Assembly (NCBI GenBank): GCA_965178125.1 | Contig: OZ237752.1 | Coordinates: forward strand, 62,001 to 126,000 | Direction: 5' to 3' | Origin: Bilabrum cf. latius | Taxonomy: Eukaryota | Length of the DNA stretch: 64,000 bases | Part shown: piece after piece, positions 3 to 64,000 of the stretch | Numbering within the stretch: position 1 is the stretch's first letter | Layout: every line of letters begins with the position of its first letter | Made by a program: the position numbers and the translations under genes | Notes under the pieces: model-generated | Told to the model about the DNA's origin: nothing | Database searches by the model: none | The model's input: the letters and a program-made list of their open reading frames with translations, nothing else

Positions 3-3000
3 TGCACCCTGGCGATCGGCAGCAGCACCTCGGCCACTGTGCGGATCGCGCCCCAGAGCATCAAGGGCGACGACGGGGGCGGAGAGGAGCTGACGGGCGT
101 TGACCTGCTGTCCATGGCGGGCGCAGATCTTGTGTTCGGGTTCAACGGCACGGGGTGCGGGGAGGCAGGCGAGGCGTGCGCAGCAGGTGCGCGGGCTTTT
201 GGGGCCAACTGCACGGACATCATGGGTCTCCCTGGTGGTGGCGTTGGCTGCGGCCTCCGTGGGGTGGATCGGCTGCGGGTTGGGTCAGAGCAGGAGTCTG
301 CTCTGATCCGGAGGCGGGGCTCGGGGCCACATCGCGTGCTCGCGTATCTGGATGTGGCTGGAGGAGTGCCGGCGGCCGCGACGGAGCTACGACATCAGAA
401 GATATCAGCCACCCAGGGCGGCTTCACGGGGCAGCTGGATAATGGTGACTACTTCGGCATTTCTGTGGCATCGCTGGGGGACCTGGACGGAGACGGGGTG
501 GTGGATATGGCTGTAGGGGCAGTGAATGACGGTGATGGGGCCTCTGGTAGAGATGCGGCGTGGGTGCTGTTCCTTCGATCCAACGGCACGGTGAAGTCGC
601 ATCAGAAGATATCAGCCACCCAGGGCGGCTTCACGGGGCAGCTGGATGATAATGACAGGTTCGGCTTTTCTGTGGCATCGCTGGGAGACCTGGACGGAGA
701 CGGGGTGGTGGATATGGCTGTAGGGGCAGTGAATGACGATGATGGGGGCAATTATAGAGGGGCTGTGTGGGTGCTGTTCCTTCGATCCAACGGCACGGTG
801 AAGTCGCATCAGAAGATATCAGCCACCCAGGGCGGCTTCACGGGGCAGCTGGATGACTATGACTACTTCGGCTTTTCTGTGGCATCGCTGGGGGACCTGA
901 ACGGAGACGGTGTGGTGGATATGGCTGTAGGGGCAGTGCATGACGATGATGGGGGCAATTATGGAGGGGCTGTGTGGGTGCTGTTCCTTCGATCCAACGG
1001 CACGGTGAAGTCGCATCAGAAGATATCAGCCACCCAGGGCGGCTTCACGGGGTAGCTGGATGATGATGACTGGTTCGGCATTTCTGTGGCATCGCTGGGA
1101 GACCTGGACGGAGACGGTGTGGTGGACATGGCTGTGGGGGCACTGAATGACGATGATGGGGGCTCTAGTACGGGTGCGGCGTGGGTGCTGTTCCTTCGAT
1201 CCAACGGCACGGTGAAGTCGCATCAGAAGATATCAGCCACCCAGGGCGGCTTCACGGGGTAGCTGGATAATGGTGACAACTTCGGCGTTTCTGCGGCATC
1301 GCTGGGAGACCTGAACGGAGACGGGGTGGTGGACATGGCCGTGGGGGCACATCAAGATAATGATGGGGGCTCTGGTAGGGGTGCGGCGTGGGTGCTGTTC
1401 CTTCGATCCAACGGCACGGTGAAGTCGCATCAGAAGATATCAGCCACCCAGGGCGGCTTCACGGGGCAGCTGGATGACTATGACTACTTCGGCTTTTCTG
1501 TGGCATCGCTGGGAGACCTGGACGGAGACGGTGTGGTGGATATGGCCGTGGTAGCACATCAAGATAATGATGGGGGCTCTGGTAGGGGTGCGGTGTGGGT
1601 TCTTTTTATGAACAACAGCCATGTGGCCCGAGCTCAATACCCCTAGATCTCACAGCCGTTGCCACCCAGCCAAGCGCATGCCATAGAAGGCTCGGCAACC
1701 AGACTGCAGGGAGGTGCTTGCTCTTTGGAGTCCTCGATTGGAGCCGTAGGTGGCAGTAATTCTCATGTGATCGTGCTGGAAGCCTCATGTGACTCGATGG
1801 CATCTGGCGGGGCTGGCATGCAAGACGCAAGCCAGGTGCACCACTCGTGGCTCTCTCGAGGAGGGTATCGCGTAAGGATGGGTGTCGGGTACGGATCTAG
1901 CGCGCCGACCCTATCTGAGCCTGGCACCTCCCCGGATGCAGTCCTGCTGCAGGGGAGCGCAGTGTGCTCCCTTGGGGACTCGAGGCAGGGCGATGGCAGT
2001 CTGGCGCTGCTGGTGGGCGATGCATTCTCCGGGCGCGTGGGAGTGGCCACGGTCGCGGCATCTAGACCGGTGATCGGAGGATCCAAGCCGCCGCTGCAAC
2101 TGCTCCGCAATGACACGGTGCACGAGGGCCCACCATCCACAGGGGCAGCGGTTGCCTGCATGGGTCGAGCGCTCCTGGGCGGCACGTGGCTGCACGACCA
2201 CGTGGTGGCTGCGGGCGCTCCTCTAGAGGACGAGGTGAGGCTGCTGTCGCTGAGCAGAGAGGGACAGGCGTGGTCGGGGCGGGTGCTTGCCACTTTGGCA
2301 TCTCCGACTGGGAGCATGGGCGACAGCTTCGGGGCGGCGGTGGAGTTCCTGGGGCCTCTGCGGCTGGAGGGACAGGAGCCGGATGTGTCCGCTGGGGAGG
2401 TAGGGGGCGAGGTGTCGCTGCTGGTGGGAGCGCCGGACTGGACTGACGGGTCATCCGGTGCGGGGCGCTTCGGTGCCGTGGTAGTGATGCACCTGACCGT
2501 GATAGGGGACACAGGAGCGCCGGACCGGCTCTCATTCACAGTGGCAGGGCACCATCTCGTGTCTCCAGCGCTGATGCCCCTGCGACTGGACGGCCGCTGG
2601 CCCCTTCTGTTTGAAGACTCGGCCTTTGGAGCCGCTGTGGAGCTGCTCGGATTTGGAGATGACGGAACAGTGGTCTTCTACGCCGGGGCACCAGGGTACA
2701 ATGACTCAGCGGGGGCAGTTGCGAGGGTGCAAGTGGACCTATACGCGCGGCTGGGTCCGATGGGGAATGCATCCGCCATCGTGGAGCGGTTGCACGCAGC
2801 TGATTCACTGCACGGGCAGGAGCCTGGGTCGCCTCCGCCCGCTGGCGTGGGGCCCTCGTGCCGCCTGGGCACGGCGCTAGAGACCACGGTTGGGATGCAG
2901 AGCGACCTGGCCACGCAGCAGGTGCACCTGCTGGCCACTGCCCCTGGCTGTAGCGGGCGCAGTCTAGTGCGCATGGAGGCGCCCACGGCCAATCTGAGCT

Positions 3001-6000
3001 TCACACCACCCTGGATGCGGCTGGTGGACCAGCGACGCGCGCGTGCACTGGACTGCGGAGGCACTGCCGGCATGTGTGCCGCCCTCAATGCCACCCTGGT
3101 TGCGAGCTCAGGTGGCGGCGGCTGGCCACCTCTTGACCCCGCCAGCGCGGCAGCTCTCGGGGTCGCTCCTGACACAGACGCCGCGATTGCCGGGGCCAAT
3201 CTCACGTGGGGCGGAGACGCCATCATGCGACACTTGGCGCAGGCAGGCTGCTTGCTGACAGAGGGACTGCTCGGGGGCCAGGCGCCGGGGGCTGGCCAAG
3301 GGGGGCTGCCTCAAGAGGACATCGCCTGGGTGGGTCCCGCAGCCCAGTGCAGTGCGGTGCATGCAAGCCGTGCCAACGATGCGATCGCTGTGGTGCTTCG
3401 GCGACCCATGTATTTGCCTCGACCGTCGGAGTTGGGCAGGGCACAGGAAGCAGCCCACGTCTGGGTGGGCGGTGTCCCCTGCGCCACCGCCAGCCTGCAC
3501 GCCGGCAGCGGCGTCACCATCGTGCAGTGCAATCCAGCGCGGGCGCTTCTGCCTGGACTGGCCGCGGTCGTGATTCGGTATTCAGATGGGCGGTGGTCAA
3601 CGGATGACGGGCAGGAGGGCGCCGCTCTGGTCCAGAGAGAGGAAAGGAGCTCAGGATAGGATCCGTGCGAGAGGAGGATCCAGCTGGCGGCGAATCGGGA
3701 CATGCAAGCTGCACCAGGTACCGCCAATGCCAGTGCCAGCGCCTTGCCGTGCCTGGCTGTGGGCGTGCTGGGTCCGCTGAGGCTGCTGCGGTCGGGTGGC
3801 TGGGGGCCGCAGGTGGGGGCGGGGGATGTGCTAGCTGCTGCTCCCGTGGGCGACGGCTGGGGTGCAGGCGGGGGCTGGGGTACGGCACTGGGAGGGTCTG
3901 GTACTCTGATGACGGAACACTCCGACGACTTGTATCCGTGGACAAGCCTGGCGAACGCATCTGTGACTAGCAGTCGGCAGATCGTACGTGCTCGTGTGGG
4001 CCCCTTTGGGTGTGATGCCGCCGGGCGCTCTGGGTTGGCAGCTGTGGGAAGCACCGCATCCACGACCCTGCGGTGCAACTTGGGCTCTGACGGGTCGGGG
4101 GGTCCGTTTGCGATGACAGCGTCGCTCCCGGGCTTGGACTGGCTGGAGACAGCTCGAATCGCGGTGGAGGATGAGACGGCCGCTGCCCCTTCAGAAGCGG
4201 CCGCCATGCGGGCTGCCTGGGTCTCGATGCCGGATCCTACGGTGCAGTCGGTGAGTCCAGCGACCGTGCGCATCACCACGATGCTTGAGATGTACCTGGA
4301 TCCTTCGAAAAGACTCGAAGTGATGGTACGAGGTACTGGGCTTGTGACGAGTGGAGGGGAGCTGGCTGTGGGGGCAGTGTTGCTCGGTGGCCAAAGATGC
4401 GACCCTCTGGAGGTTGTGTCTGCCACGGAATTGCGGTGCGTGGTGCGGGCGCACTTCATCATGTCTGATACAGTCAGTGTGGTATCGCTTGGCAGCTCAT
4501 TGGTGAACGCCGCAAATGAGACCGACGACGGGACCCGAGGCGCTGCCCTCTCATCCGAATGGAAGTGGATCAGGAACGAAACGTTGCATCCCGTCGGCGA
4601 TATTGGCTGGTCCTCGTTGTCTTCTCAAGCCCCCCCTTGCCCCCAATCAACAATGGTCAATCAGCTCCTAGTCGTGGAGGACCCCACCGTGCTGGGGGCC
4701 AGTCCATCACTGGTGAGTCCCAGCGGTGGGGAGAGCGTGCAGCTGCTGGGGGTGCAGCTTGGGGCGGACGAGGGGCGCTACATCGAGTCCGTGGATGTGG
4801 ACGGCTCGTCATGCACCAATGTGACGGTCGAGTCCGACTTTGTGATCCGCTGCACGTTGTCGCCCAGCGAGGGCGGGGCGGGCGTGGTGCGCGTGCGGAC
4901 AGTGTGGGGCCGCGACTATGTGAGCGCGGCTGGTGTGCTGCGATTTACCGCTCCAGAGATGGACCTAGTGGTCACGTCGCCACAAACCGTCTTCAACGTG
5001 CTGAACTCGTCGTACGAGGTGATCGTCACGGGCCGCCACTTTGGGATCCCGCGGGAGGGAGGCAGCGGCTCAACGGCTCGCGTGCTGGTGTCGGGTCGTG
5101 AGTGCCCGAGCGTGAGGGTGATCAACGACTCGGCCATTCGATGCAGCGGCCTGTCTCCGCCGTGGACACCTAGCGACTACAGTGTGAGGGTGATCATAGG
5201 GAGTCGAGAGGCCGTGGACCTGACTGCCTTCCCCTTCCAGCCGCCGGTACGGGTGACCTCGGTGACGCCGGCCGTCGTTCCCGGGGAGGGAGGCTGGATT
5301 AACGTACACGGTGAGGGGCTGGGCTAGTCCCCGCAGGACATTGCATCAGTCACCATGGGACCGTCTGCGTGTTATAATGTCGAGATGCGCGAGCCGGGAG
5401 TGCGCATTGGCTGCCTGCTGGCCCCTGGTGTGGGCATTGGACACGCGGTGCGGGTGGTGTCAGCCCAGAACGGCGAGAACCTTGAGACAGGGGCACCCAC
5501 GGTGGGGTATGCCGCGCCGCTGATCCAGTCGGTTGCCGTTGTGGGTGGCAGCATTGATACAAGCTACCCCCGCGCCGTCGCCTACACTGAGGAGCAAGAC
5601 ATTCGGCTGGAGCTATCCGTGAAGCACGCCGGCTGGAGCCTGACGCAATGGAAAGCATTGAGCTCGGACGGCCTCGGGGTAGTGCTGCTGGAGGGCCCGG
5701 GATGGAACACCAGCTGCAAAGAGGTGGCAATTGAGGGCACGTCTCCGGCCCTGGGGGATCCATCGGTGGACATGTTGGTCCGCGTGCGATGCTCGGTGCA
5801 GGACTGGCGCACCGCTGGATTGGCCATGGAGCTGGCTGGCACAAGCCAACAGCTGGTGGACGCGCGGTTGCGGGTAGGAGGGCAAGATGCCACAGGAGGG
5901 CTTGATGAGGCAGCCGCTTCGGAGCTGCTGACGGCTTCCGTGGCACCAGGCGGCAGCTTGTTGCTGGTGGGACGGCCGCGCCTGCAGGTGCTGAGTCCCA

Positions 6001-9000
6001 GGACGTTCCCATCGAATGGGACCGCCGACGCTGTGACTAGCGGGTCGGCGTTGAGGGTGCAGGCAGCGCGCGGAGATGGAGAGTCTCCGTCGGTGCAGCT
6101 GGCCGCCCTGCTGCAGCTGGCGGGGTCTGACGACTGGGAGTAGCGGGGGCCAAACAGCCCGCGAGTGTCTGTGGTGCTGTCCGCAACGGATGCAGTTGTC
6201 GTGGCTCCGACCCTGGTGGGCGCGGGTGCAGCTGCGGGGCTGATGCAGATCCGGGGCTCAGGTCTGGGGGCGGGTCCATGGGCCATCCGTGGAGTGACAG
6301 TCGGGGGCTAGACGTCCAGGGTGGTTGTGTGGGTGTCGGACGAGGAGCTGCTGGCGTACTGCGAGCCTGGAGTGGGCGTGGATGTTGCGGTGGTGGTCGA
6401 CACACTGAGCGGCAACTCATCCAAAGCGGCGGGGGCTGGGTCGGGTAGCACCGGGTTGCCATCGGCATCTCAGCACGTTGTGAGCTACGCGGCACCCAGT
6501 GTGGAGGATGTGCTGCCTGCGTACAGCATCATGGGGCCGGATGTCTCGGCCGACTTCACCATCCATGGACTCCACTTCGGCTTCCGACAGACCGACGTGG
6601 AGGCGGTGTTCGTGGGCGGCCAGCCATGCGGGAGCATTCGGTGGAGGTCCAGCACGCGCATCGATTGTGTGGACGTGTAGGGTTCCAGCTGGCCTGCGGG
6701 CAGTCTGGTGGAGGTGCAGGTGGCTAGCCAGACGAGTCCTCGCAACCGCCTCTTCTCGCCCCTGGGAGTGCCCATCGTGACCTCGGTGACACCCGACAGC
6801 GCCTTGGGGGGCGAACGGCTTGTGATCGCCGGGACGAGCCTGGGCCGAAGCAGCGCGGATATATCTCGTGTAAGCCTGGGTCCACACGAGTGCCTCGACG
6901 TAGTCGTACGCGGAGAGACGTCGTTGGAGTGCGTGGTGCCATCGCTGTCGGGCGGTAGCCTCGTGGATCTCCCCGTGGTGGTGTATCAGAGCGGCGGGCT
7001 CTCCAGCGACGAGTCGAGTGCTCCGCGATTCACGTACGGTGTCACGGGAAGTCCCTGGCCGGACATCCCGCAGCATGTGCAAGCATGGCGAGAGCGCAAT
7101 GACCGCATCACGGTCCGCTGGGCATTCCCCGACCCTGCCGCGGTCTCGGTGAACGACCTTGGCCTGGAGCCGCTGGACGGCTTCTAGATCGACATGAGGA
7201 CGATTTCGGAGGTGGCAATAGACGGCGATGGGACCAACACGAGTGTCTCCACGGCCTCAACCGAGTCCACTGCATTCGATGTGGACCTGGAAGAGCTGAC
7301 TGCGCAGTGGAGCTCCTCCGGCAGGGTTGCTGTCATGCAGGCCGTAGTCACGGCAATCGATGCGCGACCATTGAGTGTGCGGGTGCGGGCACGCAGCGCC
7401 GCCGGGCCCAGTCCGTACTCGGCGTGGACGCCCGGCATCCCTTCGTCATGCTCGCCGTCGGAGTTCCTCACGACTCATCTGCCGATGGCCGAGTGGGTGT
7501 GCCGCCCCTGCGACCTGGAGGCCTCGCTGTGCGATGGGGGCTCCACGTTCACAGTGGCGGCACGGGCGGGCTACCAGCGACTACCGTGGGTGCCTGGCCG
7601 CGCGGCATTCTCGCGGTGCCTTCGTCCTGAGTCGTGCCTGTCTCTGGCAAGATTTGATACCGCTTAGGCTGGTGGGTCTCTCGTGGAGGGCACCTCGGAT
7701 GCGTCCGTGTCTAAGTCACATTTGGCATCGCAGAGACGGCTCCAGCCAAGCCAGTAGGTGTCGTCGTCTGATGTGACACTATGGTCGCTATATGAAACCA
7801 ATACCCCCCTGCAGGCCGTGTCGCTGCAGCGCGCTCGTGCAATACGCAAGTCAGCATCGAACGCGTCGGCAGCGCAGGCAGCCAGGATAAGTGAGCTGAT
7901 CGATGCAGGAGCCCCCCTGTGGGTGGGCGAGCGCTGCGAGGAGGGATACACGGGGCTGCTGTGCGCGCGGTGCCGGCCGGGGTACACGCCATGGGGGCAG
8001 TACGAGTGCAGGCAGTGCCGGGGTGGGCTGGCCGTGTTTACGATCGCTGTGCTGGTGACTGCAGCCCTGGTGCTTGTGTCCATCGGCCTTGTGCTCAATG
8101 CGCTGAGGCAAGGAGCGCAGGCGGCGGAGAAGCTGTAGACACAGCTGAGGAGCGGGGCGGCTGGACGGAGCAGGCCTGGATCCAATCGGGATCGCCCAAT
8201 AAGTATGACTGGTGCGTCATCTGAGCCGGGGGCCAGCGGTGGTTCCTTCGTGGTCATGGATAACCCCATTATGCAGAGTTTGTCCACAAGAATGGATAAT
8301 TCCCCAACACAGGATAGGTCCAGTCGAGTGCACTCGGCCATGGCAATGGCATCTGGAAATGGATCATCCACGAATGACGAGGCCTCGCTCCCAGCAGATG
8401 TGCAGGATGGCAAAATTAAGGAGCGCCGGAACCTGACTGTATCGGCCATCAAGATCCTATTCTCACACATTCAGGTTGTGTCCATTGCAGCGTCCTTCAA
8501 GCTCAAGTGGCCCGACACCGCGATCCGTCTCTTCAACAGCATGTCGGTTGTCTCCAGCGTCAGCTCGGACGTGCTCAGCCTCGACTGCATGCTGCAGCAG
8601 GCCACAGACGATGCAGAGGCCCTGGCGCAAGCAGCCAACGTGTCGGTGGACGACGCGGGGGCAGCGGAATGGGGAGCAATTGCGGCACAGGCGGCGGCAT
8701 CTGGGCAAAATATCGCCACGGTCACGCCGCTGGACTGGCCGCACGCCCAGGAGACAGACGAGCAGCTGCTAGCCGACTCGCTCGGCGTTCATGAGGCCGT
8801 GACGCTGGGTGTGGGGGGCGCGTCCTCGGGTCTGGCGTCGCTGATGCCTCACGGGTCTGCGTACTTCCTGCGGACGATGATCGTGCTGCTCAGTCCGTTG
8901 GTGATTGCTATGGGCCTGACAGTCTTTTGGCTGCTTGTAGATGCGATCGATGGCTGTCTGTACGAACCAGAGCACCCGGGCGAGGGCAGTGGCGAGCAGA

Positions 9001-10523
9001 AGGAAGGAGGGGAGTCGCAGGCGGATGTGCGAGAAGGGCCGGGTCAGTCTAGAGGGGAGTAGTAGGAGCCAAGGAAGCTCGCATGGGATGCAGTGCATGC
9101 GGGGGAACAACAGAGTCCGGTGCTAGCGCATCTGGAGGCGAGCCTGGCACGCGCTGCTGGCTTGGAGCAGCCGGCCTCTGCCAAAGCCGCTGCCTCCGTA
9201 CCCTTCACCGACGAGCCAAAACAAGGCCGTCGCCGGCGGTAGAGCCTGTTCGTGTCTATGGTCAGCAAGCCTCCTCTCAGTGAAGCGCCTGGAGTCGAAG
9301 GTGCGGGTACACGTGCTGATGGCAGTGCGCTACCGGAGCAGACGGAGCTCGAGACGTTCTGTCTTGCCGGCAGCTCTCGCACCGGCAGCATCCTGCAGGC
9401 CGTGGGTGTGCCGCTGTCAGTTGTGCGCCTCGGCCTAGGGATGCGCATCCTCTCCGGTCTGATCGTCATTGGGTTCCTGGTGCACCTGACGCTGACAGAG
9501 GCCTCCTTCGGGCTGTTGACCTGCACCGACATCGAGCCTGACCTGGACCTGGCAGCCGAGGACCAGCTGGATGCAGCCGAGGACAGGTCTGGCCGCCAGC
9601 TGAGTCCCAGCGGGTCGGACGAGTGTCCGGCGGGCACGGAGAGTAGGCGGCTCATGCTGGACATGGATGTGTGCTGCCACAACCCCGCGGCTTTAAGGCT
9701 CATGTTCGGGGTTGGCATACCTGCCATCCTGCTGCTGGCCGTAGGCATCCCGCTGGCAGCGGGAGTGCGGCTGTGGCAGGTCCGCGAGTAGCTCGCGACT
9801 CCGGGCGTGCTGGCCACCCTAGGCTTCCTGATGGCGGGGTTCCGCCGCGATGCATACTACTGGGAAGTGGTTATCATGCTGAGGAAGCTGGCTGTGGTGG
9901 CCATCACGGTGCTGGCGGAGCCGTGGGGGGTGCGCGTGCAGACGTACTCGGCATTAGGTGTCATCTTTGCGGCCAGCTTGGTGCATTCCCTCAGTCAGCC
10001 GTATGTGGCCCCGGAGCTCAACACGCTGGAGCTGGTGGCACTGGTGGGCGCCTTCCTGACCTTCGAGGCCGGCCTCTTCCTGCACGACCCCAACTCGGGG
10101 GCAGCGACCATCACGGTGGCAACGTCAGTCGTATTTGTGGCGAACCTCGCTGTAATGATGTGGGGCATCTATGCCATACGAGGCAACTTGTTTAAGCGAG
10201 TGAAGGAGGTTGCCGCGAGGGTATTCAATATGTGTGGATGTGGGCAGGACCGGCAGGAGTAGGTGCAGACGAACTCCGAGAGCATGGAGAAGCGGCGGCG
10301 AGCGAAGCTGTCCAGGTCGGGGCCTGCAGGCGCGGGTGCGGGTGGAAGGGGCACGAGTGGTCCTACTTGTGCATCCGTCGATGTTGGAATGGGAGGCGGG
10401 GCACAGCAGAGCGGCCTCGCTGGCGAGCCAAAGGGTTTTGGAGGTGACTTGGGTGGCGATGCTGGGTGGAAGCGGATGCCGAGTGGCAATCACGCGGCAT
10501 AGGACGCCGCTGAGGAAACCTGA
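3..10523 (+). CDS. Very large surface/membrane protein (5'-truncated, >3500 aa with TAG=Gln): FG-GAP/integrin-alpha propeller repeats, several IPT/TIG domains, FN3-like and Cys-rich segments, C-terminal multi-pass TM domain
   Basis: ORF-track fragments 39..1055 through 10263..10502 share one frame and are separated only by TAG (18: 1053,1260,1644,3657,5325,6141,6309,6678,7185,7665,7755,8136,9060,9063,9240,9789,10260,10500). First TGA is 10521-10523. Motifs: GDLDGDGVVDMAVGA, VTSVTP/V.VGG..C, CEEGYTGLLCARCRPGY, SLDC, LGFLMAGFRRDAYYWEVVIMLRK. Confidence 0.88.
385..1610 (+). repeat. Six near-identical 207-bp (69-aa) coding tandem repeats of an FG-GAP/integrin-alpha propeller blade
   Basis: CATCAGAAGATATCAGCCACCCAGGGCGGCTTCACGGGG[C/T]AGCTGGAT recurs with period 207; the variable codon lies at 432, 639, 846, 1053, 1260 and 1467. 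Confidence 0.95.
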
Positions 10524-10774
10524 CGGCCTCAACTCGATCGCAGAAGGGGGGGGCCTGGCGGACCTGCGGCCGGACATGGTCGTGCAGCTGAGGCGTAGGC
10601 CAGAACAGCTGCCCCAGGACGGGCGACTACAATGGTTGCGCGTAGAATTTTGTACTGTAATTCACTTTTCGTAATTCGCAGCTAGATCTAGGCGCTTCTG
10701 CGCGGCACTCGCAGCTGCGGAACCAGAAAAAGATCTCATAATTTTCTCACAGATATTTGTGTACCACGTGCGGG

Positions 10775-13254: not shown

Positions 13255-13933
13255 TCAAAAATCAGGTATACCCGCTGACACTGAGTTGAGCTCTCTCGCC
13301 AGCTTCTCTCGCAACCTGTGTCCATCCCCCTGCGCGAACCAGTCTCCGGTCTTCTCATCCCAGAAGTACGCACACAGATCGCCGTTCTTCACGTTGGAGT
13401 ACACCTAAATCTGGGTTGGAGCATCGTCTGGCTTGTCTTTTATTAGAGCAACCACTCTGATGGAATCTGCATTACCCTTACCGAACATGATTCGCATCTG
13501 CGGGAAGCGAAACGAGATTGTGTAGAACGTCATCGAGCTTGCACCGCTCGTAGTGTGGTAGCTGGCCGCGAGACGCCACAAGACTCACGTCGAAATGTCC
13601 AAGTGTGTCAATTTTAAAGTCTGGGTTTGCTTCCTGCATGGTCTTTGTCCCCTCCTTTATCGTTCGAAACAGCTTGGCAATTTCCTCCTCCGGGGTGTGC
13701 TCGGGAATCGGCTCATAGAAGTGTTCCGCAACCATATTTGGCTGGAATGCCATAGGCTTCCTGTCCTTTCTCGTGTAGTATTTCCCCTTTGGAAGTCTTT
13801 TCTTCGTCTTGATGGGACCATCCCAAACGTGTCTGATCGCAACTAGCCGAAGCTGTGTTGCTGCGCTAGCTCTACGCCCTGCCGGAAGAAGTGAGCGCAA
13901 CAATGCTCTGGATGATGCTCGCACAGACTGCAT
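13255..13933 (-). CDS. Mitochondrial frataxin/CyaY-like protein, 2 exons (13933-13589, 13497-13255), ~195 aa
   Basis: Arg/Ser/Ala-rich presequence. Phase-0 intron GTGAGT...TTCCCGCAG (13588-13498). C-terminus TQI[Q]VYSNVKNGDLCAYFWDEKTGDWFAQGDGHRLREKLARELN resembles the frataxin QIWLSSP..G...Y.W...W...DG..L.E.L..EL pattern. TAG at 13405-13407; ends TGA. Confidence 0.6.
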
Positions 13934-14264
13934 TGTAATTTATGTAGGGTAAAAAGGAGATGTGTGTGATGCAGCCGGCAGCGGCTCGCAGTCGAAATGG
14001 TGATGCAGTGACGAGCGTCACCTAATTACACCACGAAACAGCAAAAGAAGCCATCAACATTCTGGACAATCCCGGCCCTTGCCCCTCCTGGCGTTCATCG
14101 CCAGAGCACGGCTTCCACCTCAGGGACTGGTTAGATTGCCAACCCGATCCATGATACAGCAAATGCAGCCTTTCATTGCAGGCATGTAGCGAGATGCCGG
14201 GAAAACGGAAGCTGCCTACCATACTGGAAGCACGCGCCTCCCCATTCAATGCATCGCTACTGTC

Positions 14265-48620: not shown

Positions 48621-49018
48621 AGGCAGGCACTATCCCCTGCGGTCAGACGATGGGGAATCTTAAGGGCTCTGCCCGTAATTGTGGACTTGAAGCCATACGT
48701 AGCCTTGGTTGTTGTTGGTCGCATTTTTGAATGCTACGAGCTTTGCCAATCACGAGAGGGATTTGATATATAATTTGCACTATTGTCAACATCAGTAAAT
48801 TTTCAGTCATTTCTGCAAGTCGTTTCTCTGTCTCGAAGTGTCTGTACGCTGGGAAGTGGCGAGCAGTCCAGAAAGCTGCTGGTCGCAATTAGAACCACTA
48901 TTGGAGAGTGGCAGCAATTTTGGCCTTAAACCGACATGTGAAAACCAGTTTGTCAAAGCCCGTTGGCATTGACACCAGCACCAAACTCTCTGAGTCGCGT
49001 ACATGATGCAATACGGAA

Positions 49019-50761: not shown

Positions 50762-51129
50762 ACCAATCTACACCTGCGATGTATTCTTGATGTGCCCAGG
50801 GTAGGGTCCTATTCTCCTAGTTTTAAGTTGTGAGAGGCGAAGAGAGCGAGAAGCAATACATGGTCGCGGCGTCCTGGTCACGACGTGGTACATCGTGCCC
50901 GTGTCTCGGGGCGTGGGTGGACAGGACTCGGAGCTACAAATCCGGGCCATGCTTCGGGACCAATGCCGCTGGAAAAGCCGCAGTGGGCACAGTAGTGGAC
51001 CAGGCACATGGGGATTCCAAGAAGGCGGCTTGAGTTGTACTCACACAAGACAGGACAACAAAATTCAGTACCAGATGGAACCGCGCAAGATGCTCGTTCT
51101 AAATTTGACTGAAGGAACACAGCGTCCCT

Positions 51130-54100
51130 TCACCCACGCACGGCCCCCCTAGCCCTCGGCCCCGTGTCCAACCTCGCACGAACCCTCGGCCCGCCATTGG
51201 CATCCGGAATCCCCATGGCACCACCATGCACTGCACGTGCACCTGGACCTCCCCGCCGCAGCGCCCCACCTGCGGACGAAGCCCGAGGCCTCGCCATGGG
51301 CCCTCCTCCTCGCCCAACCCTACTGCCCCCACCCGCCTCCGCCATCCCTGTCATCCCGACCCCTTCACTGCCCTGCCCTGCTGCGTCGAGGCCTGACAAC
51401 CACAGGGGAGAGGACGCGGGCACCATCGACATGCGAGCACGTGCCCGGGGCCCGCTGCCTCCAGTGCCCCTGCGGACACTCGCACCCGCCCCCGCCCCTG
51501 CACCGCGATCCCGCCCGGGTGCAGCCACCGTGTGCGAGCGAACCTTCCTCACCGGCGGCTGCACGGGCCCACCGATCATCGCCGCCTCCCCGCTGCCAGA
51601 GTCTGCGTGGTTGGCACTGCTGCTGCTGCTGCTGCTGCTGCCTGCCGCAACGGCTCCCGATGCCTTCTCCTGCTCCTGCTTGCCTTCCTCTTTGGCCACG
51701 TCATCCGCTACCTTGTCCGCCAGTTTGCCCAGCATGCCCATCCTCTTCATCATGAGCAGCTTGACCCACACGGCAGACCGCAGCATCTTGAGTCTTCTTC
51801 GCGCGTGGAAGCGCCTCAGCTGGCTCGCAGCCTCCCTTAGGTGGTTGTCATCCAGCCCCCCCCTGTCCAGCTCGAACCAGGGGTGCCTCAGCGCCTCCTC
51901 CGCTGTGAGTCGCCTGGAGGGCCTCACCACCAGTAGCCTCTTAACCAGGTCCTTGGCCTCCGAGGAGACCCTCGACCACTCCCGCGAGGGAAACGTGTAC
52001 GTCCCCAGGCGGACCTTGGCGAACATTCGCTCCATGGAGTCGTCCTCGAAGGGAAGGTACCCGCACAGCAACACGTACAGGATCACGCCCACCGACCACA
52101 TGTCCACAGGCATGCCGTAGCCGCCTTTGGGTTTACCCTAGTCCCCGCCCGGCGCGCCCGGTAGCCTCGAAGACGATGACGATGCAGCAGCAGTGGAGGC
52201 AGCCCCCTCCAGTATCTCCGGGGCCATGTATCCCGCGCTGCCAACCATGGCCCTGGCTTTCTTGCCCTTGAGCTGGGTAGCAAACCCGAAGTCTGCCACG
52301 CGGATGGCAGCGGCCGGCTCTTTGCCGCTGCTCCCCTCGGTCGGGGCCTCCGCAAGCAGCAAGTTCTCGGGCTTCAGGTCCCTGTGCACGACGCCCAGCC
52401 TGTGGCAGTGCGCCACCGCGTCCAGCAGAGCCATCGCCACCTGCCTAGCCTCCCCCTCGCTGTACCCCTCTCGCTTCACGATCGCGTCGAAGAGCTCACC
52501 GCCCTTGCAGAGCTCCGTCACCAGCACATATTTATCAGGGTCCGTGTCGAAGAAAGCCACCAGGCGCACGATGTGGGGGTGCCTCAGGAACCGCTGCGTC
52601 TGCACTTCTTGCAGCAGCGACGCCCGGTCTTCTGCCTTCATGGCCGCCCGCTGCATCACCTTGGCGGCAAACTGGCGACCCGTCCGGCGGTGCGTGCACC
52701 TGTGCACTACGGAGAACCCGCCCCGGCCGATCTCGGGTCCGAGCACGAACACGGATTCGAACCTGGGAGCCGAAGGTCCTTGTTCTTGGGAGCCGGCGGG
52801 AGGACGATGCACCGGCGCTCTCGCTCTCGAGTCCCTTGTTCCCCTCGCGCCTCTCATGCGAGAGCCACGGTGCTTCCCTCTGTCATCAACGGCAGGTGCA
52901 GAAGAGGCGACCTCCCCCCCGCGCGGTGTGAGGGGGCTGCTGGTGGGCGGCGCGTGTGCCTCCCTGGTGGAGGAGGTGGTGGAGGCCATCTGGGCATGTC
53001 GCCCCCACGGCTGCGCTGGGGGAGATTCGGTCGCACCATCGTGTAGTGCACCCACTCGCATGCGGGGGGCACTGCCTGCCCGCAGCATGCGCCCTACGGA
53101 TGTACTGCCATGCAATGCACCCGCGTCTTCCACCGTGGTCGCCCTGCTCCTCGTCTGCGACGCGGGGGGTAGCCTGAGCCGAGCCCCCCTCGACCCACCC
53201 TCCTATTCTTCCTCCTCATCTTCTGTCCACTCCTCCTCCTCCTCCTCCACCTTCTCGCCGATCCCCTCCAGCCCACCACTACCGCGAGAGGTAGACTAGT
53301 CAGCCGGCATGCGGCTGCCAGAGCCGGACAACAACCCCCTCCCGCGGCCCCATCCCGCGTGAAACGACTGCACGGCTCGCATCCTCGCACTCGTCACACC
53401 ATTTCCCTTGCTCTCCAGGTCCTCCCCCCTGCCCCCGCCCGCCCTGTCCATGGCCCGCCGCACCGACCGCAGTGCGGCCCTCACCTCACCATCGCCCTCC
53501 ACCGCCGGTCGCAGCAGGGCCAGCTCCGAGGCCGCCCGCTCCAGCCGCCGCCTTGCTGCAGTCAGAGCCGCTGGCTCCAGGGAACAGCGGCGCAGCGCCG
53601 CATCCCGCGCGTCCTTCCCCTCCATCGAAGAGCCGGCGGGTCCTCCCGCGAGCTGCCGTGGCCTCTGCCTCTGCCAGCCGCCCCTGGATGAGGGGGAGGG
53701 TGCAGGGGAGGGTGACCCGACGGCGCTGAGGCGCTAGCCCGTGCGGTGGGCGTCGCGACGGAGAGCGCGCTGCAGCTCCTCGCACGCGTCGAGCACCTGC
53801 TCCGGGGAAACCGCCCGCCCCACAGAGTCGGCGCACTGCGCTAGCGTGCGGCCGAGCCTGGCGGCGTCGGCGGCGCGAAGCTCTGCCGACCGCGAGGCGG
53901 TCGGGTGCACCGCATTGCGGCGCCCCGCACCCTGCCCAGGACCAAAACCGCGAACACCCCGCCCCGGCGAGCCCGACGCACTCGTCACACCGTCCATGGC
54001 CATGGGGTTGGTCCGCAGTGGGACCGTGCCGTGGCCGAAGGCCGATAGCCCCAGTCCGCCGCTCCCGCCAACTCCATCAGCAGCGGACGAAGGAGGCGCC

Positions 54101-54595
54101 GCCATTACTTTGTGGTGAGCGTCGGCCACCGCCGTCTCGATCGCACGCACCCACTCGATCGCGATTCGTTCGCCGGCACCCGAGGCGGGAGGTGCATCCG
54201 GTACGACGTGCAGGTCCCGCTGGCCCGGCACAGTCGCAATTATAAATCCAGGCTGGCCTCTAAGCTCCTCTGGACGGGCTCCAGACACCTAATCGAGCGG
54301 CAGCCGGCCGCGGCTCCGTGCTGAAACTGGGTCGTAGGTATAGATCAGCTCAGTTGTGGTGAGCATGAGCCATCGGCGCTACCAAGTCTGCGAATCCGAG
54401 TATATAGTGTATATTCACGCACTTCTTTACGTCACGTGGGGGCTAAATACGGAAACTAGGGCAGCCTGGCAGTCTGCAACACATCCAACCACTGGTGGGC
54501 CTCACTCGCATCCAGCCTCTGCTCTGCTTCTGCATCCAACCCGAGCGCAGCACCTTTCCGATCGGTTTTCCATCCATATATTCTATTCCTTCCAT
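51130..54595 (-). CDS. PH-domain + CAMK-group (CaMKI-like) Ser/Thr kinase, exons 54595-54506 and 54387-51130, ~1115 aa
   Basis: PH: VLRSGWMQKQSRGWMR|TW[Q]RRWLML...EWVRAIE. Kinase: GRGGFSVV, AAK, HRDLKPEN, DFG, YMAPE, DMWSVGVILY, followed by a basic CaM-binding-like helix. Six TAGs (54379,54289,53734,53296,53203,52138); ends TGA. Confidence 0.88.
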
Positions 54596-56327: not shown

Positions 56328-59308
56328 TCACCCCAGCATGCCACCGAGCCCGAACGACGAGCCCAGCATGCCAGCATCAGTCCCATCCCCCGCCGCGCCT
56401 CCCCCGGTTCCCCCCACACCCACACCCACGCCCCCCCCGAACCCCAGGCCCCCGCTCGAGCCCCCCTCAACGCTCCCACCCCCGCTGGACAAGGCCTCAA
56501 GCCCGCTCTCGTGCCCCAGCCCAAACATGCCCCCAGACCCAGACCCAGACCCCCCCTCCCCGGCAGGAGCCAGGGGGGACACAAGGCCAGAGCCCAGCCC
56601 ACCGAACCCTCCGCCCCACTCCGTCCCTGTCCCCGCGCCTGCCACTCCACCGCGCGACATGGGCGCTGCGGGTGCGGTGGACGCAGACGGCATCCCCCCA
56701 GAAACCCCGCCTCCCATGCCGCCGAGCACGGGCGTTGACCGGTGGCTCCCAGTCCCAGCCACACCCGCACTCATGCCGGCCCCCGGATCCGCCCCGACAC
56801 CTGCCGAGCTCCACTGCGAGGCCCCTGAGCTGCTGTGCCCCAGCCCACCGCTGCCCCACCCGCCGTCGTAGCCCTGTCCCTGCCCGGGTCCGTATCCATA
56901 GGACTGGCCCACAGCGCCCGCCATGCCGTGAGCAGAGGGCACGGGCCCGGTGCTAGAACCCATCTGCCCCTGGTGGTGCCCATGCCCCTGCATCTGCCCC
57001 TGGCCTGCCTGCATCTGGGCCCGCATGGCTTCCATCTGGGCCTGCATGCTCTGGATCTGGGCCTACAGAGCCGTGGTCTGCTCCTGCCCATGCCCATGCC
57101 CATGCCCATGCGAGAGACCCCCAGAACCAGCGCCATCGCCAGCCGCACCGTGCCCGTACCCAGTGCCCGCACCGCCCACCATCGGTGATGCCACGGGAGC
57201 ACCACCTCCGGTGAAGTGGCCGCCATAGAATGGAACCGACATTCCCATGCCCATCGGCATCATCGGCATGCCCATCGGCATCCCCATGCCCATGCCAACG
57301 CCGACACCCGCTCCAGGCTGCATGCCCATCATCTGCGAGACCCCTGCGCCCCCGAGCTGGGGAACACCAGCCACAGGCCCTTCCCCGTCCACGCCCGCAT
57401 GCACGCGCGGCAGCGGGGGGTTTCCGACCCTGAAATCGCCGTACGAGGCCACACCAGACACCGGTCCGGCAGCTCCACGACCCCCGCCCGGTGGCACGCG
57501 GCCCAGCGGGCTGCCCGCGATGGTCCCCTGCACGTGACCTCCGGGCCCAGGGCGCTGGATGCGCGGGGGGGGCACCCCCTGGGGACCCCCGCCCCCCTGT
57601 TGGGGACCCAGCTCGCCCCTGGGTTTCCCCGGTTGCATCTTCAACACGTCCAGCGCCGCCTCTGGCTGCGGATCCTCCTGCCCCGTGGCCCTGAGGTACG
57701 CCCCCCTGAGCCTGGCCATGAACTGGCGGTATGACTCGGCTGCCAGCAGGGAGGAGTAGGACTGGGGGAAGGAGGCGGGGTCCTGCGAGACGAGGTACTT
57801 GAGGTGCATCGCCTGCTGACGGTCCTTGCCCCCCGTCGTGGCCTCACTCGTCACACCAGCGCTGGCCAGCTGCAGAAGGCAGGCGGCCGTCCCATCCCAC
57901 GTGCTTGTCTTTGCTCCCTCGTCGTCATTTTTATCAACAACAACATCATCACCGTGGCGGACGCCCCCCTCCCCCTCGCCCTCGCCCTTGCTCTCGCCCA
58001 GACCGGCAGCGCGCTCGTCATGAGCTGCACCGCCGCCGCTGCGGGCGGTGGTGCTGCTGCTGGCTCCTGCCGAGGACGCAGGGGAAGGCCCGGGCCCGGG
58101 CGCGGCCCTCGTGCTCGTGGTCGTGGTCCCTACCACGCTGAGGGCCCCGGCGCCGCGCATTCCGGTCGGTTCCGCTGCACCGGGGATCGTCGAGGCAGGG
58201 GATGGCGCCGCGCCGTGTTCCGCACCCACAGACCGGCCATGCATCTGGCCCCCACGGTACCCTGCGGGGCCGCCGACCCCGGCAGCGCCCCTGCCTCTGC
58301 CTCTGCCACCGCCACCACCGCCACCACCGCCACGCCCCCCCCTGCCGCCCCCCCGGCGCACAGGCACGCCCATCCTGGCGAGCCCGCCCCTGCCTGCGCC
58401 GCGCCCGCGGGAGGTGGTCGTGCTGGACACTTCCACCGGTGATTCCTGCGCGCCACGCGCCGCCGCGTACGGGTCGGGGGCGCCGCGCACATCGGCGGAA
58501 CCTGCAGTTCCATCGGATCGGAACGTGCTGCCGGGCAGGGGCGGTTTCCTGGAGGCGGCAGGGCCCATCCCACCGGAAATTGGGTCCTCTGGCAGCTCGT
58601 CGGGGTTTCCCGAGAACGGCAGGAGCTCGGAATCGCCGTGCGCGAATGTGCAGCGGACGGAGTGCGGGCAGCTGGTGCCACCGCTACGCAACCACCATTT
58701 GCAGATGCGAGTCTTGTACCTGCAGTGGCAAGTTTAAATATACTATTCATACATTGCGGCACATGCATGCAAGCAACCAGCTGCAGCAGCAATGCACGGT
58801 CCACCACTACCAGCGGAGGCAGCAAGGCCGGACGGCGTACATTTCATTCGCTGCCTGTCTCACCTGGGGTTGGTAGCCGGTGAAAATCCTGGAGTGTTCC
58901 CCGCTTTATCTTCTCTTAATTCGTTTGTTCCGTGGGCAAAGAGGCACTCCTAGTACGGACAAGAGCCCTCCAGCCAATACAGGCATACCTGCGCAGCAGG
59001 TCAAGGTCAGCGACAAGGCTAGACAAGCTGTCCACAAATCTTGAATAGAACAGGCCTTAAAGTCGACTTGAGAGGCATACCACCAGCTATGCTAATATCA
59101 ATGAAGAGTTATGCTAATTGGTAGGCCACCAGGCACGAGCGCTGGTGGGGGGTCGCTCAGTTTCGATTGCACACAGCCGTGGCCTACCATCCAAACGACC
59201 CAAGTGGGAAGCACAGTGTTCCAGCAGGGGTGGCAACAATGGACAAATACCGTTTCTTACCTTGGTTTTGTACCGACTTTGTCCCTGCCGTTGTGGTTGG
59301 CCTCTCAT
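56328..59308 (-). CDS. Tandem CCCH zinc-finger RNA-binding protein (TTP/Tis11-like) with long Gly/Met/Gln-rich tail; exons 59308-59261, 58988-58864, 58719-56328; ~854 aa
   Basis: RYKTK|VCLYWLEGSCPY[Q]ECLFAHG and RYKTRICKWW...CPHSVRCTFAHG. TAGs at 58950 and 57063; ends TGA TGA. Confidence 0.85.
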
Positions 59309-59748: not shown

Positions 59749-62700
59749 ATGTCAGACCTGCTGGATGATGTACTACAGAGCGAAATTGATTACTGCGGGA
59801 GCCTGCGGGCTTTGAAGGATGTCTTCCTCAAGCCATGCACGTCGCGGCACAAGATTCGTGACAGGATGTCTGGGAGCGAATCCACTGCGCTTGGTGAATG
59901 CCTGAAGCAAGTACGTAGTATCCTGGAGGCAAACTCAGAGTTTTTGAGGGAGCTCCAAGAGTCATCGGACAGAGGATGGGCTGGAGAGGGCCTGGGCCAC
60001 ATATTCAAGAAGCAGAATGCCATGCTGCTTGCTCACATTCAGTACGCAAAGGCATTCCATAGTCATGCGGAGGCATTTTCTGCGGTACCAGAGAACGCAT
60101 TTAGGGCGCTGGCGTACGAGCCAGGCGCGAAGAAGGCTTGCAGAGGGCTCGGGCCGTTCGACCTGCTGCAGGCACCCGTGGAAAGGCTCCTCGAATACGA
60201 GGCGCAGCTCGGAGCCGTGCTCCAGGGAACACCGTAGGCGCACCCTGGCTTCGAGGCGCTGACAAAGGCGTCCCGCGGAGCGGGGAAGGCGGCCCGACTG
60301 GCTCTGAACGCAGTGGACGCGGGCGTGTCTGCGTCCGTGCAGTCGAGGGTGAAGGGGCTGCGGCTGCCCCCCGCGGGGACCCAGGGGCCGTCCCGGTGGT
60401 TCGTGCGAGAGGGCGACTTCGAGCTGGACCCGACGTGCGCCAAGACGCTCGGCCTCACCAAACCCCCAGCGGCTTCCTCCTCCTCCTCCTCTTCAGCCTC
60501 AGCTGCTGCCAGTGGTGGTGCGGCCTCTCGAGACAAGGACTCGGACTCGGAATCGGAATCGGAATAGGGGGAGCAGGCCGGTGGCCCGGTGTTGCGGTTC
60601 GTGCTCCTGTCGGATTGCGTGCTGCTCGCATGGCCCCTAGAGCCCGGGAGGGGCAAGGGCAAGGGCACGGGCAAGGGGGCACGGGCGGGGAGAGGGGGGG
60701 GGGGAGGGGGGGGCCGACCCCGAGCTGGGCGCGGGGGCCGACGGGGCGGCGGGAGGGGGAACAGCAGAAGGAGAAGAGGAAGGGGAGGGCGCCAAGACCA
60801 GCGGGGGCAGCAGACCCCCTTGGGACATGCAGCTGGCCCTGCTGCTCCCGCTGACCGAAACCACGCAGTTCCACTCCAACGAGCTGGCCAATACCCTGAC
60901 CGTGTCGGACGAGGTCGGTGGCGTGTCGGTGGTGGCGGGGGGTCTCCCAGGTACCGATTCTTCTTCCTGGGCCAAAGACCTGGGCAGACTGCTGGAAGGG
61001 AGGCTTACGTCCAAGGACGTGCGATTCAGGGGCATCGCGCTGCGGCAGCGGCTGATGCAGACGTATGCTGCTGAGGTGCGGCAGCTGCCTCTCCTGGAAG
61101 CAGGCCTCTCTGGTGCGAGGCACGTATCGGGGGCCCTCCCAAAGGGGGGTGCGGGGGGAGACGGGGCCGGCGAGGAGGAGGGTGAGCCTCACGTGATACT
61201 GATGCAGGAGGGCAACTCGGTGGCCAGCACCAGCGGGATTCCCCTCCTGGCCGGGGACTGCTTTGCCTCTCCCGCGCTGGGCTGGAGAGACCAGCATGAC
61301 GCAAGCTCGCCGGAGTCCAGGCTGCAGCGGGCAGCGGCGGCAAGGGCAGCAGTGTCCGGGCAGATGGCCCAGAAGTACGCCGCGGAGGCGGGTGGCGGGC
61401 CGGGTGGGAAGAGGGTGCCCCGGCCCAGCCTGCTGCACATGGGCTCTGCTTCGGGGGAGATGCGGCCCTCCCTGTCACGTGCCTATGAGGCCTCCACGGA
61501 GGAGGACGATGAGCTGCCCACCGGGGTGCTGGACGCGGCCCCATTCGCCAGCAAGGACCAGATTAGGGCCACGTACCGGAGGGTCAGGGCGGGCGTGCAG
61601 TCGTGCGCCGTGCTGCTGGAGAGCTCGCTGGAGCGGCGCGGGACCAGCATGCTGTCGTTCTGGACCCCAAAGTACGCCGTGCTGCGGGTGCACGCGATCG
61701 AGGCCATGCAGGCGGCGGGGACCTTTTCTGTGTTTGCTTCCAGGGAGGTGCGCACGCAGGCGGCCGAGGCGGAGATCGAGGCGGAAAGGAGCTCCAGGGA
61801 ACAAGATGGGCTTGCGACAGGGGCCAAGGATCCCATCGAGGCGGGGAACGCGATGGCTGACTCTGCCGAGAGCATCCATGCCATCGGGGAGGTGGGCTGG
61901 AAGGGGGACCCCTCCAGGCCGGGAGGGGGCAAGGGCGGGACTGACTTCGAGCTGACCACGCGAGGCACGCAGTACCTGTACCGGGCCAGCAGCGTGGAGA
62001 TGGCCAAAGAGTGGGTGCTGACCCTCGCCTGCCTGCAGGAGGTCAAGAGAAGGGCAAGGGCGGAATCATACCAGATCTCTCAAATCGCGCAGACTGCAAA
62101 GAGGAGGGGGGCAGCGCAGGCGCAGGCGCACGGTGTCAGCGGGGGCAGGGGTGGATCATCCCCACCCGGGGCGGGCGGTGCGGTACCTGCACCCGTGGCG
62201 TTCGAGCGGAAACGTCGGCACACATCCACGGCGAAGAACCTTGCGCTGGCCGGACTCACCTCTGCTGCCAAGAAGGCGGCCGAGGCATTCGCCGCGCCCG
62301 GCAGCAGTGCTGCTGCTGGTGCAGGGGGAGACAAGGGCAAGGGCGGCGATGCATCGCAGGCAAAGGGGAAGAGCGGGGGTCTGTCCGCGGGGAAGAAGAA
62401 GAGGGTCTGGAACGCGCTGCGAGACAGGCTGCGGCAGGTCGCGCCGAGGAAGGACAGCGGCAGCGAGGACGTCGAGTCCACCTATTCCAAGGGATCTCTC
62501 GAGTCGTCTGGCACGGGGTTTATGGGCAGGCCTCGCGGGGGCAGCGCGCTGGCCGGCTCTGCCACGACCGCCACCGGCACGGGGGGATCGAGCGGGACGA
62601 GCGGACCCAGCGCCTCTGCTCCTGGCACCAGCAGCACAGGCGGCAAGGGCGGTACATCGGGCCCGCAGTAGGCGGCGGCGGGAGCCACTGCATCCAGCGG

Positions 62701-64000
62701 GACCTCCAGCGCCAGTGCCTCCAGCGGCGTGTCATCGAAGGAGATCCCGTGCAGACCCCTGCAGCCTCCACCGGAAGGACAGGGAGAGGGACAGGGGCAG
62801 CCCAAGCAGGGCACGCTGGGCCCCGTACCCGCCGCGCCTGCAGATGCCCCGCCCCCTGCGGCATCGGGCAATCTTCATGTGAACGTGCCCGAGATCCGCC
62901 GGAGGTCTGACGGGAGCGTCGGTTCCCTGCAGCCCCTGACTCCCGCCCTCACGATGCTGGACGGCGCCGTGGACGACTCACCCAGGGCCAGACACGCAAG
63001 GAAGCTGTCGGGCATGCTGGGGACCCCCAGCCCGGTGAGGAAGAGCGCGGGGGACAGGGACAGGTCGGGCTCTCGCGACGGGAAGCCCCCTGCGTACATG
63101 CTGCCTCCCACGCTCCGTGACGAGCACAGGTCCAGCTCCGAGGGACAGAAGCAGCAGGGGCAGACCGGCCTGCTGCACCCCGGCACCGGCACCGGCACCG
63201 GCACGGACGCGGACGGTACGACCTCCGTGGAATTGCGTCGGGCGAGCGGGTCCGGGATCAAAGACTCGAGGCTGCGGGAGCCGATCCGCTCCCCCTCGGC
63301 ACCGACCGTGGAGCAGACCACACCCACGGTCGGTGCCGGCGGCCAGGATTCTGACAGTGCATCCGCCTCCTCCTCGACGGGGGAACAAGGGCAAGGGCAA
63401 GGGGTGGCGGAGAATGCCCAGCGGCGCAGCAGCAACGGCAGCGTCAGGCGCAGCGTGGCTGGCTCGCCCATGGGTCCGGCGCGCTCGACGGGGACGGTGA
63501 GCGGAGGAGGAGGAGGAGGAGGAGAGGATGCCCCCCACACCCCGAGGGACGTAGGTAATCGGCAGCGGCTGTCCAGCCAGGGGTCCGCGGGCAGCGGGGG
63601 CAGGCCTCCCTTGCAGCAGCAGCATAATCAGCAATAGGAAGAGCAGGACATCATGGCCATGAAGAGACGGGCCTCGGCTGCCCGGCGGAGGCACCGGCAC
63701 GGGATAATCGGGCGAGGGAACACAACGCCCATGCGGATCCGGCCCCGGGACATCGTGCGGCACATCGAAGCCCTGGAAAAGAAGAACAGACAGGAGGCGG
63801 ACCGCATGAAGCGGCTCGCGGACCACGGGCACCACCATGCAGTGCACCATAAGAAGGGCAGGGGCGCCGGCAGGGCGGCGGCTGGAGAAGGGGGTGGATC
63901 CGCGACGGGCAGTTCTTCGTCGCACTCGTCACACCCGGGGGCCGCCGCCCAGCCCGGCAAGCCGGGGCCCCGCGCGAGCCGCGTGCGCCGGCAGACGATG
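59749..64000 (+). CDS. RhoGEF (DH-PH) protein with second PH-like domain and low-complexity C-terminus; 3'-truncated; apparent frameshift in a poly-G tract at ~60694-60713
   Basis: DH motifs QSEIDYCGSL..L and LLQAPVERLLEYEAQL..VLQGTP[Q]AHPGF; PH-like RFVLLSDCVLLA and FWTPKYAVL...YLYRASSVEMAKEWV. TAGs at 60235, 60565, 62669 and 63635; open to the window end. Confidence 0.75.

Follow-up and report, generated by a model that had tools for sequence, protein, structure and literature searches.

Nuclear genomes in which the meanings of UAG and UAA have become uncoupled are rare, the cases named by McGowan et al. (2024, PMC11687900) being Iotanema, a rhizarian, Scotinosphaera and a few ciliates. The closest described system is that of the non-ciliate Iotanema spirale (Fornicata), in which, according to Panek 2017 (PMC5304391), UAG alone has become a glutamine (Gln) codon and UAA and UGA are stops, and the ciliates with the same UAG-only change are given as Protocruzia tuzeti and two phyllopharyngean lineages (PMC11687900), where it is likewise UAG and not UAA that means Gln. 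In the rhizarian exLh (UAG = Leu) and in Scotinosphaera (UAG = Ser) the two codons are also reported as uncoupled in a nuclear genome, and in the more widespread codes of the table 6 type UAA and UAG (together UAR) both mean Gln, as described for many ciliates, hexamitin diplomonads, ulvophyte green algae, the oxymonad Streblomastix and the aphelid Amoeboaphelidium protococcarum. Here we analyse a 64-kb stretch of contig OZ237752.1 (positions 62,001 to 126,000; "the window" below, meaning the whole stretch), which very likely stems from the nuclear genome of a eukaryote that is rich in GC, contains introns and treats UAG as a sense codon in its cytoplasmic translation, with Gln as the most likely meaning. 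This is what a first-pass annotation made from the letters alone had proposed for the whole window, and it is borne out by RNA contigs, by two related lineages sharing the code and by a likelihood comparison that ranks Gln first.

G+C content lies between 58 and 69% along the window, at about 65% overall (intergenic and intron sequence has a GC fraction of about 0.46–0.66 vs 0.72–0.82 at coding third positions). With the stops of translation table 11 the longest open frame has 1,259 amino acids, and when TAG is read through two stretches of the plus strand each become one open frame ending in TGA: 3..10523 (3,506 codons, 18 TAGs) and 19575..44129 (8,184 codons, 19 TAGs). Frames of 3,506 and 8,184 codons are not attributable to chance, because the stop totals of whole frames are high (129–331 TGA, 37–53 TAA and 101–130 TAG per 21,333 codons). 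The features of these two genes are as follows.

3..10523, plus strand: gene 1, truncated at the 5' end by the window start; FG-GAP repeats and IPT/TIG domains, with a multi-pass membrane part at the C-terminus; TGA at 10521-10523
1053, 1260, 1644, 3657, 5325, 6141, 6309, 6678, 7185, 7665, 7755, 8136, 9060, 9063, 9240, 9789, 10260, 10500, plus strand: first bases of the 18 TAGs of gene 1
1053-1055 and 1260-1262, plus strand: the two of these TAGs that share one column of a 207-nt tandem repeat in gene 1, with CAG in the other four copies
19631..44129, plus strand: fibrocystin-like giant gene; TIG, G8, CEMIP beta-helix and laminin-G-like parts; main exon unbroken from 19631; TGA stop
19047-19263 and 19493-19630, plus strand: 5' introns of the giant gene
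19695, 21441, 23376, 23973, 25101, 28629, 29079, 29712, 30051, 30456, 30987, 31848, 34206, 34704, 38484, 41475, 41565, 42225, 43557, plus strand: first bases of the 19 TAGs of the giant gene

The 207-nt repeat extends over 393-1600 (5.8 copies, 91% matches) and codes for FG-GAP-like units of gene 1.

Across the window the gene models comprise 13 open reading frame (ORF) or exon stretches from 10 genes, totalling 18,328 codons or 54,984 nt, and contain 66 in-frame TAGs; neither TAA nor TGA occurs in frame in the 18,280 codons counted, and a 48-codon exon added later is likewise open. ORF limits were used where the true start is uncertain, and a few of the TAGs nearest to 5' ends (e.g., 48630, 50768 and 60638) may therefore lie in an untranslated region (UTR) or an intron. 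The first-pass annotation had listed 12 genes, 68 TAGs and 11 complete ends, all TGA, with no internal TAA or TGA over roughly 55 kb of coding frame: the pattern stands, and the counts come down to 10 genes, 66 TAGs and nine ends. Its remark that the base following TAG varies also agrees with the models (C 12, A 16, G 26 and T 12 among the 66), and since these numbers lie near the background of first codon positions, the TAGs show no readthrough context. TAG makes up 9% of the Gln codons of the models if counted as one (66 TAG vs 567 CAG and 100 CAA), and many of the Pfam domains of the window genes stand 3' of in-frame TAGs.

Parts of the window are present in seven public runs from three studies, four of which (X1, X5, X6 and X7) were compared over 10001-30000, an interval that includes three further genes:

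10742..13072, plus strand: secreted protein without a Pfam family; start of RNA contigs near 10765; TAG at 11048-11050; TGA stop
13255..13939, minus strand: small frataxin-like gene; N-terminus resembling a presequence, weak frataxin-like domain; intron 13498-13588; TAG at 13405-13407; TGA at 13255-13257
16600..18841, plus strand: arylsulfatase, 545 amino acids when spliced; introns 16677-16774, 16920-17021, 17164-17282, 17756-17936 and 17957-18060; TGA stop
16830-16832 and 17471-17473, plus strand: the arylsulfatase TAGs

None of the runs is recorded as RNA in the archive, and the RNA content of X5, X6 and X7 is shown by splice joints: these runs show eight GT..AG (or CT..AC) joints of 91–217 nt which are missing from the DNA run X1, and they therefore contain spliced RNA. 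Five of the joints correspond to the arylsulfatase introns, two to the 5' introns of the giant gene and one to the intron of the frataxin-like gene. In X5 a contig 26,641 nt long is spliced at these joints and then continues through 19631-30000 without a joint or a differing letter, crossing eight TAGs, and the TAGs at 11048, 13405, 16830 and 17471 are covered by further contigs, again with no other letter. Twelve of the 14 TAGs in this interval are thus unchanged in mature RNA, and because spliced contigs carry them unaltered, both editing and splicing, the outcomes that the first-pass annotation had wanted checked in RNA, are excluded for these 12; the other two are the TAG at 10260, which has no RNA support, and that at 10500. 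The same X5 contig (16775-30000) links the sulfatase mRNA to the giant gene via introns 19047-19263 and 19493-19630, and either the transcripts of the two neighbours overlap or 5' exons of the giant gene overlap the 3' UTR of the sulfatase.

Other evidence is obtained from relatives of the giant gene in public data. Searches for shorter proteins gave eight protein fragments that are 88–98% identical to it (P0003, P0004, P0005, P0007, P0022, P0023, P0024 and P0026), five of which stop exactly at TAGs of the window (residues 1268, 3169, 3380, 3628 and 3805) and three at CAGs (residues 2831, 4062 and 4882); they look like the output of a standard gene caller run on such a gene. A more distant form is present as metagenome contig L001 (8,579 nt, 57.5% GC), in which one frame is open over all 2,859 codons, with 12 TAGs and no TAA or TGA; its alignment with the giant gene covers residues 1613-4498 (2,962 columns, 57% identity). 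Three further fragments (P0006, P0037 and P0071) are 99–100% identical to L001, and for two of these the end falls on a codon that the L001 DNA shows to be TAG; since both of the ends that could be checked are TAG, fragment ends can be taken to mark this codon.

Between the window and L001, 1,040 of 1,620 identical residues are encoded by differing codons, and over the 30 residues that follow a TAG column identity is 0.58, compared with 0.52 ahead of such columns. This combination of synonymous divergence and undiminished identity means that translation runs through TAG under purifying selection. None of the 12 L001 TAGs coincides with a TAG of the window, and five of 11 TAGs of the window are shared with the 88–98% identical fragments, so TAG positions turn over fast, as is expected of a synonymous Gln codon. 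The reassignment is organism-wide rather than gene-specific, and public data contain at least two related lineages that have it too.

Regarding which amino acid is inserted, the L001 alignment offers 19 pairs in which a TAG faces a residue (seven opposite TAGs of the window and 12 opposite those of L001), the residues being Gln in five, Ala in three, Thr in two, and Leu, Val, Gly, Pro, Ser, Lys, Arg, Phe and Glu in one each. Judged by the ordinary retention of residues in the same alignment (Gln 28/85, Glu 60/123, Trp 47/55, Tyr 40/53, Leu 140/232, Ser 106/222), the number of Gln pairs fits a Gln codon, and Glu, Trp, Tyr, Leu and Ser are far off. The clearest case is residue 4171 of the giant ORF, which is CAG in the window (32085-32087, plus strand) and TAG in L001, in a block where the two forms agree at 20 of 20 neighbouring residues. 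Under empirical substitution tables, applied to L001 and the close fragments, the log10 likelihoods for TAG are -26.5 for Gln, -38.2 for Glu and -40.0 for Lys, favouring Gln over the next-best Glu by about 10^11.7; these values leave out two pairs found later, one with Glu and one with Gln. Within gene 1, one column of the 207-nt repeat is CAG in four copies and TAG in two, and those relatives' fragment ends that do not pair TAG with TAG all fall on CAG in the window (four of four) and none on GAG. Trp, Tyr, Leu, Ser and Lys are ruled out as meanings of TAG by the L001 pairs and the likelihoods together, and the assignments known from exLh and Scotinosphaera do not apply here, Leu and Ser each standing opposite TAG in one of 19 pairs and lying far below Gln in likelihood.

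A number of observations weigh against this reading of the codon or leave it without further support. In the close fragments (88–98% identical) the residue opposite a TAG of the window is Glu at 1843, 3019 and 4878 and Gln at 623, 3493 and 4092, and P0012, which is 87% identical to gene 1, has Glu opposite the TAG at residue 2555, which brings Glu to four of seven close-relative residues; ordinary exchanges between Gln and Glu are rare in the close-fragment alignments (three in about 243). In the frataxin-like gene the TAG at 13405-13407 falls on a conserved Trp column, where the Pfam family Frataxin_Cyay scores 22.4 bits with Trp, 15.9 with Gln and 14.3 with Glu, at a cut-off of 21.3. Comparisons with distant proteins are uninformative: among 150 distant homologues of the giant gene, five of seven TAG columns are uncovered and two are variable or gapped, an arylsulfatase TAG faces Tyr or Val in a variable column of solved sulfatases, and the kinase TAG falls in an insertion relative to solved structures. 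The TAG at 10260-10262 is CGT in X5 and X7 and in 12.6 of 18.2 depth of X1, the sample bearing on UAG as a terminator, which no gene requires, comprises only nine gene ends, and the window contains no tRNA genes and not the eRF1 gene.

We infer that the Glu pairs are replacements between Glu and Gln at weakly constrained sites, GAG being one step from TAG as it is from CAG. Because Trp never stands opposite TAG elsewhere, the Trp column probably reflects divergence of this frataxin rather than a second meaning of TAG; a search of solved structures with the frataxin-like exon gave no match, even at an E value of 10. The CGT at 10260-10262 is a DNA variant and not the result of editing, as the DNA run X1 mostly shows it too.

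The 3' end of gene 1 contains a cluster of variants at 10052-10274. Eight sites in 10125-10178 differ in all of the X5 and X7 depth and not in X1, and five sites in 10260-10274, including the TAG/CGT site, differ in X5, in X7 and in most of X1, which points to a second haplotype, a paralogue or a strain.

In terms of mechanism, a UAG-only code needs, according to Panek 2017 (PMC5304391), a tRNA with anticodon CUA, most simply obtained by mutation in a copy of tRNA-Gln(CUG), and in addition an altered eRF1, for which the same source gives T32G in the GTS motif of the Iotanema protein. By analogy with Iotanema, a tRNA-Gln with anticodon CUA, derived from tRNA-Gln(CUG), is to be expected, which would pair with UAG and not with UAA, and eRF1 would have lost recognition of UAG. 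It is also conceivable, though unlikely, that there is no dedicated tRNA and that the near-cognate tRNA-Gln(CUG) reads UAG once eRF1 no longer recognises it, an arrangement whose outcome would still be Gln. Against this, 9% of the Gln codons are TAG, and TAG is found in a gene with high-depth RNA contigs, so that efficient decoding would be needed, and Panek 2017 (PMC5304391) cites tRNA-Gln(CUA) genes in Tetrahymena, Condylostoma and Spironucleus.

A sense UAG that means Glu, or both Gln and Glu, is very unlikely, although such codes have precedents in peritrichs and Blastocrithidia, and in the ciliate PL0344, in which UAG means Glu. The Glu residues described above (four of seven in close relatives, one of 19 in the L001 pairs) speak for it, as do several TAGs that stand in Glu-rich runs, e.g., EEEE-TAG-EGG and GE-TAG-TAG-EP; on the other side, the four fragment ends that are not TAG in both forms lie on CAG and never on GAG, the L001 pairs show Gln five times and Glu once although Glu is the better conserved residue, and both the likelihood ratio of about 10^11.7 and the CAG/TAG repeat column favour Gln.

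The assignment of UAG to Gln leaves the question of how genes end. All nine complete 3' ends are TGA, as the earlier annotation had found for those that it listed, and TAA terminates none of the nine. An ambiguous code of the Condylostoma or karyorelict type, in which UAG is sense inside genes and a terminator near some mRNA 3' ends, has only a slim probability: in gene 1 the last TAG (10500-10502) lies six codons before the TGA and either could be the true end, but in the other eight complete genes the last TAG precedes the TGA by about 50 to 670 codons with coding sequence between, and there is no gene in which a TAG stop is needed.

For UAA, an expectation can be calculated on the assumption that TAA:TAG follows the A:G ratio of the Gln, Glu and Lys codons, which in the window is 0.18 for CAA/CAG, 0.27 for GAA/GAG and 0.24 for AAA/AAG. 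Beside 65 TAGs in the 18,280 codons counted, the window has no TAA where 11.5–17.7 are expected over all stretches and 6–9 in the three best-supported genes (P 2e-3 to 2e-8), and L001, with a CAA/CAG ratio of 0.74, has none beside 12 TAGs where 7.7–9.0 are expected (P 1.3e-4 at 8.9 expected). Since TAA is absent where it is expected, the change concerns UAG alone, as had been proposed, and UAA is not a sense codon; it may be a rare stop or an unassigned codon. It is accordingly extremely unlikely that UAA and UAG both mean Gln (code 6) and that TAA is merely rare owing to the high GC content: the nine TGA ends, none of them TAA, are what would be expected with UGA as the sole stop, but the in-frame count of TAA is zero in both the window and L001 despite these expectations. 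There is next to no chance that the TAGs are untranslated owing to RNA editing, unnoticed in-frame introns, pseudogenes or assembly errors, given that spliced RNA contigs are colinear through 12 TAGs with no other letters and no joints there, that five TAG sites are common to a relative and constraint persists 3' of TAGs, and that four runs from three studies contain the stretch.

Gene ends in Iotanema comprise 104 UAA vs 15 UGA (PMC5304391), whereas all nine in the window are UGA, and on this stop usage Iotanema was rejected as the source of the DNA. Iotanema is known in that account from a transcriptome alone, where the tRNA was also unidentified, and the window is a piece of genome with 58–69% GC. 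As for ciliates with the UAG-only change, the window differs from them as a 64-kb multi-gene stretch with GT..AG introns of 91–217 nt, giant genes and a GC content of 65%. Macronuclear genomes of ciliates are generally AT-rich, and phyllopharyngean chromosomes are gene-sized. The locus does not look like part of a ciliate macronuclear genome. With the UAR = Gln systems it has in common that TAG means Gln and UGA is a stop, and it is unlike them in that the frames of the window and L001 are without TAA; among these organisms Amoeboaphelidium protococcarum was rejected as the source on GC content, which is given as 40.5% (PMC10608142) vs about 65% in the window. The crAss-like and Lak phages (code 15) are described as reading TAG as Gln too, but theirs is a recoding by a phage relative to a bacterial host with the standard code, whereas the window is a spliced nuclear locus.

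The possibility of a stramenopile, raised by the first-pass annotation, finds no support in the relatives of the giant gene, the 3' signals or the kinase match. The only homologue of the giant gene found with a similar length is one animal fibrocystin-L, and the best named relatives are from Gefionella, Volvox and fishes. TGTAA, the poly(A) signal of green algae, follows only two of the nine stops in the window. The CaMKII-like and ARSB-like best matches are a hint of opisthokont-like gene content, and no more than a hint, the structure library being biased towards animals.

In full-text searches of the literature no description was found of a GC-rich non-ciliate with a code in which UAG alone means Gln; supplementary tables could hold more taxa. 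In our reading the lineage is new and the code variant is a known one (of the table 15 type). The independent and undescribed origin suggested earlier for it is plausible, the arguments being indirect, namely stop usage unlike that of Iotanema, GC content unlike that of Amoeboaphelidium and the lack of a matching paper. Tentatively, the source may belong to an undescribed, GC-rich, intron-bearing clade that reassigned UAG alone to Gln independently of Iotanema, the ciliates and the aphelids, in which UGA is in practice the only stop and UAA is unused (either unassigned or, very rarely, a stop), and of which at least three lineages have been sampled: the organism of the window, the 88–98% identical form and the 57% identical metagenome form.

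The remaining genes of the window lie downstream of the giant gene:

44403..48659, minus strand: ORF for a low-complexity membrane protein with no Pfam family; 10 TAGs; TGA stop
48630, 48348, 47847, 46755, 46560, 46014, 45882, 45651, 44778, 44592, minus strand: first bases of the 10 TAGs of this membrane-protein ORF
49019..51040, minus strand: ORF for a secreted protein with no Pfam family; TAG first bases 50768, 50471, 50345, 49823 and 49430; TGA stop
51130..54414, minus strand: protein kinase, its catalytic domain closest to CaMKII among solved structures; TGA stop
54379, 54289, 53734, 53296, 53203, 52138, minus strand: first bases of the six kinase TAGs, that at 52138 inside the kinase-domain insertion
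56328..58733, minus strand: CCCH zinc-finger protein, Gly/Gln-rich; TAG at 57063-57065; stop TGA with a second TGA directly after it
60353..64000, plus strand: low-complexity ORF with no Pfam family, continuing beyond the 3' end of the window; TAG first bases 60638, 62669 and 63635

The giant gene and the gene that follows it (44403..48659) are convergent, with 273 nt separating their TGA stops (44129-44403). The products of 10742-13072 and 49019-51040 are both apparently secreted and without a Pfam family, and the latter has an ELGNE-like motif presumably recalling that of clan-A glycoside hydrolases. An ORF at 13713-15923 on the minus strand with six TAGs, probably one of the genes counted in the first-pass annotation, was rejected as a gene, as it consists of a minisatellite of 29-nt units in 38 copies plus flanks; the array itself (14265-15392, about 38 copies, 89% matches) gives a Pro/Ser-rich pseudo-ORF on the minus strand, and 14670-15336 within it is uncovered in the RNA runs, to which no weight was given. 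The gaps between genes in the 64 kb hold no additional gene, and none with a TAA end, and the window has no Rfam matches.

Nuclear code changes are rare outside the ciliates, and those that split UAG from UAA are rarer still, so that a further case would provide an independent data point on how UAG, and not UAA, is freed from eRF1. Standard gene callers break such genes at each TAG, and the public proteins of the relatives are fragments of precisely this kind, from which it follows that the proteomes of this clade are mis-annotated. Being GC-rich, and having public DNA and RNA data as well as environmental relatives, the lineage could be a tractable one in which to find the tRNA and eRF1 changes that were only predicted by Panek et al.

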